From IMG/VR virus record IMGVR_UViG_2660238309_000007, positions 1-6,310 of that record: 6,310 nt of DNA. One strand, given 5' to 3'. The first letter of the stretch is position 1, and each line of letters starts with the position of its first letter. The notes under the pieces were generated by a model, which made no database searches, was not told the DNA's origin, and worked only from the letters and a program-made list of their open reading frames with translations. Positions 3,470-5,499 of this stretch are shown here, piece after piece. The DNA is from a virus (Duplodnaviria; Heunggongvirae; Uroviricota; Caudoviricetes). Made by a program: the position numbers and the translations under genes.

Positions 3470-3546
3470 GGCCCTTTAGCTCAGTTGGTCAGAGCGAGCG
3501 ACTCATAATCGCCAGGTCGCTGGTTCAAGTCCAGCAAGGGCCACCA
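3470..3546 (+). tRNA. tRNA-Ile2 (anticodon CAU, presumably lysidine-modified, reads AUA)
   Basis: Cloverleaf read by hand: acceptor ggccctt/aagggcc, D-arm gctc...gagc, anticodon loop ctCATaa (CAT at 3504-3506), T-loop ttcaagt, discriminator a, encoded CCA. C4 and C5 in the acceptor stem and close similarity to enterobacterial ileX-type tRNA favour Ile2 over Met. Confidence 0.8.
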
Positions 3547-3547
3547 A

Positions 3548-3624
3548 CCACCACTAGCTCATCCGGATAGAGCATCAACCTTCTAAGTTGACGGTGCGAG
3601 GTTCGAGTCCTCGGTGGTGGGCCA
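3548..3624 (+). tRNA. tRNA-Arg (anticodon UCU, reads AGA/AGG)
   Basis: Acceptor ccaccac/gtggtgg (7 perfect pairs), D-arm gctc/gagc, anticodon stem tcaac/gttga with loop ctTCTaa (TCT at 3582-3584), T-arm cgagg-ttcgagt-cctcg, encoded CCA. Confidence 0.85.
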
Positions 3625-3626
3625 GC

Positions 3627-3702
3627 GCCGACTTAGCTCAGCAGGCAGAGCAACTGACTTGTAATCAGTAGGTCACCAGTTCGATTCCGGTAGTCGGCAC
3701 CA
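3627..3702 (+). tRNA. tRNA-Thr (anticodon UGU, reads ACA)
   Basis: Acceptor gccgact/agtcggc, anticodon stem actga/tcagt with loop ctTGTaa (TGT at 3660-3662), T-loop ttcgatt (one A-C mismatch in the T-stem), encoded CCA. Very close, from memory, to enterobacterial thrU-type tRNA. Confidence 0.85.
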
Positions 3703-3705
3703 TAT

Positions 3706-3780
3706 GCGGGCATCGTATAATGGCTATTACCTCAGCCTTCCAAGCTGATGATGCGGGTTCGATTCCCGCTGCCCGCTCCA
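3706..3780 (+). tRNA. tRNA-Gly (anticodon UCC, reads GGA)
   Basis: Acceptor gcgggca/tgcccgc, anticodon stem tcagc/gctga with loop ctTCCaa (TCC at 3739-3741), T-loop ttcgatt, discriminator t, encoded CCA. Resembles glyT-type tRNA from memory. Confidence 0.85.
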
Positions 3781-3894
3781 TGACCTTTCTTAAAGTACTC
3801 CAACCTACTGAATCCTAAGGGATACGGCTTTAAGCCTCCTTGCAGAGTTACTTACTGTAACCCACTGTGTAACCCTCTCAGGGCATGCAGACAT

Positions 3895-5499
3895 ATGATT
3901 CAGCTATCCAGTAGTCACAAACTTCCAGCAGTCTACTATCTCTACCAGCGTAACGGCGTCTACTACTTCCGTCTTAGGGTCAGACAATCAAACAATGATA
4001 GAATGACCTCAATATCATTACGGACCAAGGATAGACGCACCGCTATGGCTTACTCAAGGCACATAAAGGCAGCACTCAAGGCAATACACGCAGACAGACC
4101 CAACGCTACCTATGAGGAAATGAGGGAACACCTTAAGGACATCGCTGAGTGTGAACTGTCTATGGGCCGTTCAGATCTCTTTGAGCCTGACATGAGGGAT
4201 ATCTACCGGGACCAATACGGAGAACTTGGTGAGAGCCTTACCGATGCTCTGGCTAGTGAGCCGCTAAGCATTGACCAGCATCGTTACATCAATGAGGCCC
4301 TGAAGGTGCTAAAAGCCTGTATGAGGCGTATCGAAGCGGGAGACAGTCAGCCTCTGATAGATTACGTCGATCTTTTTAATGATATTGATAGGCAAGATAA
4401 CCAAGCAGACTCTGTGTCCCTATCTGTTAATGCTCCAGAAGTAAAACCAGAAGTTACGCCTAGCATTACCATAGCGAGCCTCTTTGAACAATACGAAGCG
4501 GAGAACTATCAGAACTGGAAGCCTGCAACCTTAAGGGAAAACAAGGCGTCACACGCTGCGTTAATCGAAATATTCGACCATCTGGGTCTCAATGCAGACG
4601 CTAACAGGGCTGACATGCTTAGGGTCCGTGATGTGCTCCAGCAGTTACCTAGGAACCGTAAGCAGCGCTTCAAGGATGTCCCACTTGCTGACCTGTTGAG
4701 CCGTGAAGATAAGACAGATTGTCTGGATGTCGTTACCATCAACAACAAGTATCTTATTAAGATGGCTGCTGTCTTTAGGTGGGCTGTGCGCAATGACTTG
4801 ATTAAAAAGAACATGACTGAGGGTCTGGAGCTTAAAGTCCCTCAGCGTAAAGCCTCAGGGGCCCGTAACGCCTTCTCTACGGAGCAGGTGGGGCAACTAC
4901 TGGTCGCAGCTAAGGCATACTCTCAGAAGACCTCTGGTAAGCCGTATCATTATTATGTTACCGCCTTGGCTGCTATCACTGGGGCGAGACTCAATGAAAT
5001 AGCCCAACTACAGGTCAAAGACGTCAGGACCACTGAGGCGGGAACCGTTTATATTCATATCAATGAAGACGATAGTAGTCTACCCGGTAAGAGCATCAAG
5101 AACGCTCATAGTGACCGCTGTGTGCCTCTGGTCGATGGGGCCTATGGTTTTATATTGGCTGACTTTATGGCGCTTGTAGAGACCCGTAGAGGCGCTGACG
5201 GTGATGACGCTATGGTGTTCGATGGTCTGCGTCTCATGAAGAACGGTTACGGTGAGCAGGTGAGTAAATGGTTTAATCGGACGTTGTTGCCTAAAGTCCT
5301 CGTAGACCGTAGCGGCTTAGCGTTTCACTCGTTTAGACATACAGTTGCGGCCCAGTTAAAACAACATGGGGTCGAGTTGGCGTATGCACAGGCGATCATG
5401 GGGCATAGTTCAGGGTCTATTACGTACGACCGTTATGCTAAAGAGGTCGAGGTTGATAGGCTGGTCAATGTGATGGCTGATGTTTATAAGGAGACCTAG
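3895..5499 (+). CDS. Tyrosine recombinase / phage-type integrase (534 aa)
   Basis: C-terminal catalytic signature in the translation: ITGARLNEI (Arg), LAFHSFRHTVA (H-x-x-R), AIMGHSSG (His), SITYDRY (catalytic Tyr). N-terminal YYLYQRNGVYYFRLRV resembles an integrase N-terminal DNA-binding motif. Lies immediately 3' of the tRNA array. No strong Shine-Dalgarno upstream of ATG 3895. Confidence 0.88.
   Translation: MIQLSSSHKLPAVYYLYQRNGVYYFRLRVRQSNNDRMTSISLRTKDRRTAMAYSRHIKAALKAIHADRPNATYEEMREHLKDIAECELSMGRSDLFEPDMRDIYRDQYGELGESLTDALASEPLSIDQHRYINEALKVLKACMRRIEAGDSQPLIDYVDLFNDIDRQDNQADSVSLSVNAPEVKPEVTPSITIASLFEQYEAENYQNWKPATLRENKASHAALIEIFDHLGLNADANRADMLRVRDVLQQLPRNRKQRFKDVPLADLLSREDKTDCLDVVTINNKYLIKMAAVFRWAVRNDLIKKNMTEGLELKVPQRKASGARNAFSTEQVGQLLVAAKAYSQKTSGKPYHYYVTALAAITGARLNEIAQLQVKDVRTTEAGTVYIHINEDDSSLPGKSIKNAHSDRCVPLVDGAYGFILADFMALVETRRGADGDDAMVFDGLRLMKNGYGEQVSKWFNRTLLPKVLVDRSGLAFHSFRHTVAAQLKQHGVELAYAQAIMGHSSGSITYDRYAKEVEVDRLVNVMADVYKET

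Follow-up and report, generated by a model that had tools for sequence, protein, structure and literature searches.

The 6,310-nt stretch of phage DNA analysed here (IMG/VR record IMGVR_UViG_2660238309_000007, positions 1 to 6,310; hereafter the window) raises a question of adjacency: why does an integrase gene stand directly behind four tRNA genes? The original prediction held that the tRNAs read rare codons in which the integrase gene is enriched, and that they support translation of foreign, AT-biased genes. Our analysis points to a different reason. With a probability of roughly 0.9, we conclude from sequence comparison that the integrase adjoins the tRNAs because the last of them, tRNA-Gly, is the integration target of the island to which the integrase belongs. 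By this reading the tRNA cassette and the island are parts of two unrelated elements, and the codon bias of the integrase is intrinsic to its family. Coordinates below are positions within the window, and L-numbers designate related loci. The features on which the argument turns are these:

3470–3546, + strand: prophage tRNA-Ile2(CAU) (ARAGORN, Rfam)
3548–3624, + strand: prophage tRNA-Arg(UCU) (ARAGORN, Rfam)
3627–3702, + strand: prophage tRNA-Thr(UGU) (ARAGORN, Rfam)
3706–3780, + strand: prophage tRNA-Gly(UCC), intact, its 3' end forming the left attachment site (attL) side of the island insertion (ARAGORN, Rfam, homology break)
3781–6248, + strand: left 2.5 kb of a putative ~6-kb tRNA-Gly-targeting integrative island, its right side cut by IS911
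3895–5499, + strand: island integrase, a tyrosine recombinase of 534 amino acids (PF00589, PHROG 1)

The boundary between the two elements falls at the very end of the tRNA cassette. Bases 62–3780 are 99.7–99.9% identical to E. coli lambdoid prophages and 93% identical to phage phiP27, the phiP27 match covering the replication-Q region and stopping inside tRNA-Arg at 3574. Identity to the prophages ends exactly at 3780, the last base of tRNA-Gly, and identity to islands at chromosomal glyU begins at 3781. From that base onwards the sequence aligns with what follows glyU, the tRNA-Gly(CCC) gene beside actS and xdhA, and 3781–6248 is matched in 386 of 5,426 complete E. coli genomes, where the islands lie at glyU and are 80–93% identical to the window. 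On this evidence, two unrelated mobile elements abut at 3780/3781. The prophage tRNA-Gly(UCC) and glyU have in common GGGTTCGATTCCC and the last 10 nt, GCCCGCTCCA, and this similarity of their 3' ends explains how one could serve as a surrogate for the other. The use of a prophage-borne tRNA as a surrogate integration site would be a minor variant of known tRNA-gene integration.

Both the empty and the occupied form of the prophage site were found. In the E. coli loci L002 and L016, tRNA-Gly is followed directly by the sequence that stands after the right attachment site (attR) in E. coli EPSSH018 (L040). In EPSSH018, a related prophage cassette is followed by a 6,356-bp island, attR (CCCGCTGCCCGCTCCA), the empty-site sequence and then the holin gene; the tRNA at attL in that genome is a hybrid whose 3' end is of the glyU type. 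Ten complete Shigella-type chromosomes of 4.6–4.7 Mb (L005–L014) contain bases 3371–6310 at 99.8% identity, indicating that the junction in the window is not an assembly artefact. EPSSH018 is the only one of the 5,426 complete E. coli genomes with a prophage-site junction, and a search for the exact 41-nt junction in species-representative genomes gave no match, so that the junction is confined to the Shigella lineage and one E. coli genome.

These observations are consistent with the following course of events. The integrase would be the first gene of a separate ~6-kb island, which the recombinase inserts into the 3' end of a tRNA-Gly gene; across Enterobacterales the usual target is chromosomal glyU. 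In the Shigella lineage the island would have recombined with the prophage tRNA-Gly(UCC), whose 3' end resembles that of glyU, an insertion that regenerated tRNA-Gly and left the integrase reading away from it, and IS911 would have removed the right part of the island afterwards. With tRNA-Gly as its attachment site, the integrase would thus have come to stand beside the tRNAs. Direct readings give the boundaries of the two elements, the att repeats, the sites with and without the island, and the codon counts listed below; from them we infer the order of events, with island insertion preceding the IS911 cut, and the lack of a selected link between tRNAs and integrase. The island copy in the window is probably a truncated, immobile remnant.

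Several points weigh against this account. Neither the window nor the Shigella chromosomes examined contain an attR, IS elements having removed it there; 12 relatives have an attR, as does the occupied prophage site in EPSSH018. As no attR survives in the Shigella lineage, integration in that lineage is deduced from attL and from the relatives. The two prophage-site junctions also differ in their crossover points, the attL of the window keeping prophage-type bases (GCT) and that of EPSSH018 being of glyU type. Finally, the integrase is truly rich in the codons read by two of the four tRNAs, is co-oriented with them and lies just downstream, and tRNA-Ile2 and tRNA-Arg of the cassette may incidentally help to translate its AUA and AGR codons.

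The open reading frame (ORF) at 3895–5499 matches tyrosine recombinases (PF00589, E 2e-17; PHROG 1, E 2e-44). Read directly, its translation contains the motifs GAR, IKN, HSFRH, GHS and DRY, which complete the catalytic R-K-H-R-H-Y set. The exact protein is recorded as 'putative integrase [Shigella flexneri]' (Q7UAD1) and occurs on at least 1000 contigs; a phmmer search against PDB sequences returned no solved relative. We compared its codon usage with that of five upstream prophage genes and 18 host chromosomal genes, expressing each codon as a fraction of its amino-acid family:

ATA (of Ile): integrase 8/26 = 0.31; upstream genes 8/63; host 0.06
AGA (of Arg): integrase 7/41 = 0.17; upstream genes 9/80; host 0.02
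AGG (of Arg): integrase 13/41 = 0.32; upstream genes 6/80; host 0.01
ACA (of Thr): integrase 2/23 = 0.09; upstream genes 14/55; host 0.14
GGA (of Gly): integrase 3/24 = 0.12; upstream genes 18/71; host 0.11

Relative to the host, ATA (p = 2e-4), AGA (p = 3e-4) and AGG (p = 2e-10) are all enriched in the integrase. The original prediction was correct that these three codons are frequent in the first hundred codons of the gene (3 ATA, 4 AGA and 3 AGG) and that the upstream genes use mostly CGT and CGC (46 of 80). It had also named ACA and GGA, and for these the counts do not bear it out: neither is enriched in the integrase relative to the host (p about 0.75), both lying at or below host level. 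The expected excess over the upstream genes likewise holds in part. It is significant for AGG alone and for AGA and AGG pooled (p about 0.001 each), but the four strictly cognate codons together are less frequent in the integrase than upstream (37.5 versus 47.5 per 1000), and once the wobble partners AGG, ACG and GGG are added, codon demand is equal at 82 per 1000 in both. Nor is the integrase an AT-biased gene, as had been assumed, having a GC content of 48.5% overall and of 52% at third codon positions (GC3). A T7-like codon usage of the integrase was considered as well and rejected, its usage being unlike that of T7.

The best-placed rival explanation is the functional coupling originally proposed, in which the tRNAs supply rare-codon readers for the integrase and for AT-biased foreign genes. 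It draws on the enrichment of ATA, AGA and AGG, which tRNA-Ile2(CAU) and tRNA-Arg(UCU) read, and on the position of the integrase, co-oriented and 115 nt downstream of the cassette. We nonetheless consider it unlikely. The ACA and GGA counts leave two of the four tRNAs without a special match, and the wobble-inclusive demand of the integrase is no different from that of the upstream prophage genes. The same bias (ATA 0.22, AGA 0.20, AGG 0.27) is seen in integrases from islands at glyU, where no tRNA cassette lies alongside, suggesting that the AUA/AGA/AGG excess is an intrinsic trait of the integrase family. Conversely, the cassette exists without the integrase in near-identical prophages, and att-site geometry explains the adjacency. 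We see no sign of a selected association between tRNAs and integrase, and two of the four tRNAs appear irrelevant to it.

If the integrase is not the client of the tRNAs, what is? ARAGORN called four tRNA genes with the anticodons CAU, UCU, UGU and UCC, in agreement with the original reading, and Rfam confirmed 4 of 4. The CAU tRNA was labelled Met by ARAGORN, but the identical gene in RefSeq prophages is annotated as tRNA-Ile, as are all its relatives down to 80% identity in the 5,426 E. coli genomes, and direct reading of its acceptor stem shows the pairs C4-G69 and C5-G68. These pairs are reportedly determinants for the lysidine synthetase TilS. Given the annotations and the acceptor pairs, the assignment of this tRNA to Ile2 holds. 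That the anticodons read host-rare codons also proved right, as the host fractions listed above attest. The prophage to which the cassette belongs uses each of the four cognate codons 2 to 5 times as often in its genes as the host does (ATA 0.13, AGA 0.10, ACA 0.25 and GGA 0.22; p from 4e-4 to 3e-7), most strongly in the early and lysis genes, which have 49–61 cognate codons per 1000 versus 22 in the host. By these counts, the natural clients of the cassette are the prophage's own genes: the cassette would read AUA, AGA/AGG, ACA/ACG and GGA/GGG, host-rare codons that its own prophage over-uses. The proposal that the tRNAs support foreign genes therefore stands for the prophage's genes and fails for the integrase, in which ACA and GGA are flat and whose cassette-free relatives are equally biased. 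A gene beside phage tRNAs, this case cautions, need not be their client.

The remainder of the window upstream of the tRNAs belongs to the prophage and to IS911:

1–61, − strand: outer end (left inverted repeat, IRL) of IS911, 61 nt, forming a perfect 61-nt inverted repeat with 6249–6309 and matching an annotated E. coli IS911 family transposase element
82–3270, + strand: lambdoid (phiP27-like) prophage module, annotated from the E. coli loci L002 and L016
82–960, + strand: dnaC-like loader
957–2348, + strand: DnaB helicase
2345–2602, + strand: hypothetical protein gene
2697–2897, + strand: ninH
2890–3270, + strand: antiterminator Q
3357–3381, + strand: GC hairpin with a T run behind it, AAACCCGCC-TCCG-GGCGGGTTTTTT, in the interval that separates Q from the tRNAs (read directly)

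In L002 and L016 the tRNAs follow Q and are followed in turn by a class II holin gene, a lysozyme gene and morphogenesis genes, with no integrase among them. This Q-tRNAs-holin order in near-identical prophages places the cassette in the late region of a temperate phage of ~50% GC. The set had been thought typical of AT-rich virulent phages; its carrier is a temperate lambdoid prophage. A comparable case is ileZ-argN-argO, the tRNA cassette of 933W-type lambdoid or Shiga toxin (Stx) phages, downstream of Q and with a rare-codon rationale; a literature search for ileZ, argN and argO found no open paper. The window cassette resembles such cassettes in lying between Q and the lysis genes and in having anticodons for host-rare codons that the phage's own genes over-use. 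It differs in having four tRNAs (Ile2, Arg, Thr, Gly) rather than three, and in that its last tRNA is used as an integration site by another element. The content of the cassette varies among related prophages: in EPSSH018 the second tRNA (10859–10935 of L040) is annotated as tRNA-Lys and not tRNA-Arg.

The island itself belongs to a family present in at least 15 enterobacterial genera. Among 20 species-representative Enterobacterales genomes, 15 have an integrase homologue (65–87% identity) situated 110–140 nt downstream of tRNA-Gly(CCC), and hosts of such glyU-type integrases include Klebsiella, Pectobacterium, Morganella, Enterobacter, Citrobacter, Buttiauxella, Kluyvera, Proteus, Serratia, Rouxiella and Edaphovirga. 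The family loci analysed were L017, L020, L023–L027, L033, L034, L001, L003, L004 and L040. Twelve islands are bounded by 16–23-nt direct repeats of the tRNA 3' end; eleven of these measure 5.45–6.45 kb and the twelfth, L001, 7.34 kb, with an IS element inside both L001 and L004. In L001, a second, unrelated integrase gene (19432–21384) begins ~90 nt after the attR of the first island, which suggests tandem accretion of islands at glyU.

Complete islands are small and lack a complete phage gene set. They encode, in a conserved order, the integrase, often a DUF4145 protein, then, beyond the promoters described below, a Rha or KilA-N regulator, a protein of ~67 amino acids, a DUF6971 protein whose tail is a charged coiled coil, and a protein of 326–402 amino acids; the integrase and regulator are thus accompanied by only three or four small proteins. 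The three island proteins without assigned function have no match in PADLOC, PHROGs or NCBIfam. For the protein of 326–402 amino acids, which gave no Pfam match and no PDB match by sequence search, we examined a predicted model (pLDDT 71): its top 50 Foldseek matches in the PDB are all HK97-fold capsid proteins or encapsulins, with E-values down to 7e-9 and TM-scores of only 0.3–0.46. This capsid-like gene is found in complete islands and is missing from the window. No portal or terminase-like family was detected among the island proteins scanned.

Downstream of the integrase, and once within it, the island contains sequences akin to those of T7-group phages:

4410–4428, + strand: T7/K11 junction 19-mer CTCTGTGTCCCTATCTGTT, within the integrase ORF
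5512–5874, + strand: three tandem 121-bp repeats, each with one exact T7 class III promoter TAATACGACTCACTATAGGGAGA
5588–5610, 5709–5731 and 5829–5851, + strand: the T7 promoters, all directed away from the integrase
5888–5924, + strand: conserved non-coding block
6040–6200, + strand: AT-rich ACTTAAAG array, T7-primary-origin-like
6201–6229, + strand: inverted repeat GGTGAT...ATCACC (GGTGATGATATTTAT...AATCACC), conserved and also present in the Klebsiella island
6249–6309, + strand: outer 61 nt (IRL end) of a second IS911 copy, cutting the island; the IS911 transposase follows here in L005–L014

The promoter region, 5512–5874, matches 272 T7-group phages. The repeats number three in the window, two in the E. 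coli glyU islands and two in the Shigella-type genomes L006 and L008, and related islands in other hosts have promoters of other T7-group specificities in the same place and on the same strand. In the Klebsiella pneumoniae ATCC 13883 island (L017, 10262–10390), exact promoters of the K11 phi9/10/13 type (AATTAGGGCACACTATAGGGAGA) stand beside one exact T7-type promoter, as if RNA polymerases of different helpers could act on the island. Matches to the Citrobacter island come from Kayfunavirus-type phages of Citrobacter, Enterobacter, Cronobacter and Shigella, and those to the Proteus island from T7-like phages such as ICP3. Promoter-like matches are concentrated downstream of the integrases: the downstream zones, 28 kb in all, contain 36 of them, and the other 596 kb only 1. 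Each phage-type promoter is immediately preceded by an inverted repeat, TTGAC...GTCAA (window 5550–5587, with equivalents in each repeat; L017 10325–10350), which may be an operator.

The T7 primary origin is said to have two tandem promoters, phi1.1A and phi1.1B, with an AT-rich region behind them. In the window, the promoters are followed by a conserved non-coding region (5888–6229) with a GC content of 31–35%, which aligns with the Klebsiella island at 74% identity across 264 nt. The array at 6040–6200 within it, of about 31% GC, resembles the AT-rich part of the T7 origin: its local alignment to T7 5951–6008 scores 38, a value reached by none of 500 shuffled sequences (18.3 ± 2.9).

The third signal is the 19-mer at 4410–4428, an exact copy of the sequence at the right boundary of the T7 terminal repeat (149–167) and of that of K11 (170–188, including the annotated 'concatemeric junction'). 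Its core, TCCCTATCTGT, is nearly invariant in 16 islands, inside an otherwise variable and indel-rich stretch of the integrase gene. Conservation of this 19-mer within the ORF suggests a packaging or cleavage signal at the DNA level.

A further T7-related feature did not generalise. E. coli-type islands have T7 primase sites (GGGTC, TGGTC, GTGTC) at 16–20 per kb, in tandem arrays of the form (CCTGTGTGGTC)n and (TCTCTAGGGTC)n (L001 13800–13870 and 14480–14610; L003 17448–17670). Islands of other genera have no arrays and are not dense in such sites, and we rejected primase-site density as a feature of the family. In the window, IS911 cuts exactly where the second primase-site array would begin.

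T7 is among the best-studied phages, and to our knowledge no natural satellite of it has been reported. The islands carry what appear to be helper-matched signals in their promoters, origin-like region and junction motif. We give even odds to a satellite role for these ~6-kb tRNA-Gly islands, with T7-like (Autographivirales) virulent phages as their helpers. As a close variant of the same idea, they could defend against such phages or act as decoys; a satellite or defence element that the helper's RNA polymerase switches on is the most economical reading of the sequence. Under the satellite proposal, the RNA polymerase of an infecting phage would fire the host-matched promoters of the island, driving T7-type origin activity at the adjacent AT-rich region and switching on the genes further downstream, those for the regulator, the scaffold-like protein and the HK97-fold capsid protein. 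By means of the concatemer-junction motif in the integrase ORF, the helper terminase would then be able to cut and package island DNA. The window copy would be a remnant, decayed through IS911, that had entered a lambdoid prophage by way of the surrogate tRNA-Gly site. Virome and contig searches gave no evidence of excision, replication, packaging or extrachromosomal islands. Contigs of ~6 kb with the capsid-like gene, considered as candidate excised circles, were rejected as chromosomal fragments with flanking genes, and IMG/VR yielded only relatives of 34–36% identity at the edges of proviral calls, with no evidence of encapsidation.

The location of the window island invites another explanation, that it is a helper-embedded satellite which chose the prophage late region on purpose, with Q-dependent readthrough via the tRNAs and the lambdoid prophage as its helper. 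In two independent cases, the window and EPSSH018, the island lies directly 3' of Q and the tRNAs, in the orientation of the late operon and upstream of the lysis genes, a geometry like that of helper-embedded phage-inducible chromosomal islands (PICIs), which are likewise satellites co-oriented inside the late region of a lambdoid prophage (PMC10111431). The integrases of those PICIs, however, target late protein-coding genes of the helper, and here the target is a tRNA gene. The usual site of the family is chromosomal glyU, as the 386 E. coli genomes and 15 of the 20 other species attest, against the single prophage junction among complete E. coli genomes, and the signals in the islands, promoters of the T7 group and a junction motif of T7/K11, are not of lambdoid type. 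This explanation is thus quite unlikely, and the lambdoid prophage is probably a bystander to the island. That the integrase is the lambdoid prophage's own, with tRNAs and integrase forming one phage genome, has the general precedent that many phages have an integrase beside a tRNA attachment site and no other support, and we reject it as having next to no chance of being right, since the reference prophage encodes an integrase and an excisionase of its own at its other end, beside mlrA (L002, L016), prophage homology breaks off at 3780, and the island has att repeats of its own in other genomes, EPSSH018 among them.

Integration of the island at tRNA-Gly, which we prefer as the reason for the adjacency, follows a familiar pattern. 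The island shares with P4-like elements and classical genomic islands an integrase directed away from an intact tRNA gene, a 16–23-nt repeat of the tRNA 3' end at the far end, and the existence of both empty and occupied sites. It departs from that pattern in targeting a phage-borne tRNA-Gly(UCC) as a surrogate for glyU (CCC) and in being unusually small at ~6 kb; judged from gene content alone, it has no cargo in common with P4. That tRNA genes serve as integration targets even on prophages means that mobile elements can nest.

Among known satellites, the islands resemble phage-inducible chromosomal minimalist islands (PICMI) in their ~6-kb size and apparent dependence on virulent phages, the latter deduced here from sequence (PMC10803314), and capsid-forming PICIs (cf-PICIs) in being minimal islands whose complete members encode a protein with a predicted HK97 shell fold (10.1101/2022.09.08.507074). 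Neither PICMI nor cf-PICIs show detectable sequence homology to the island family. The signals differ too: promoters for the single-subunit RNA polymerases of the T7 group, a T7-origin-like region and a T7/K11 junction motif, none of which we found described for any satellite. According to Chung & Hinkle (1990), as related in PMC13236587, T7 replicates plasmids and packages them as concatemers, provided that its origin and a pac signal are present on them together with the terminal repeat or concatemer junction. The islands share with such engineered T7 phagemids and transducing plasmids the T7 promoters followed by an AT-rich region and the junction motif; they differ in being natural and chromosomally integrated, and in having the 19-nt motif only versus the full 160-bp terminal repeat.

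Our literature searches, with subscription literature outside their range, found no description of T7 satellites, of T7 promoters in islands, of glyU islands or of DUF6971. The tRNA cassette and integration at tRNA genes are textbook matters; the island family with its T7-type promoter, origin and junction signals is not described in the literature searched. If a widespread family of islands does sense the helper's RNA polymerase, copy the helper's origin and concatemer junction, and bring its own capsid protein, it would be a directly testable system for how virulent phages are parasitised. Such islands would be a natural counterpart of engineered T7 phagemids. They would also explain the exact T7 promoters found in Shigella and E. 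coli chromosomes, and could matter for T7-based expression and phage therapy.

Some minor observations concern the upstream part and the ends of the window. The hairpin at 3357–3381 resembles, as we read it, a late-operon terminator; it was recognised by direct reading only and is absent from the consensus terminator-scan list. The ten Shigella-type chromosomes share 3371–6310 with the window and differ in the upstream module, where an ORF6N gene replaces ninH and Q. This switch of modules at 3371, inside the hairpin, indicates mosaic recombination among lambdoid prophages. At the left end, the IS911 sequence at 1–61 forms the contig boundary and truncates the prophage directly upstream of the dnaC-like gene. 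The two ends of the window are accordingly the outer ends of two IS911 copies facing outwards, and the window is the unique segment between them.

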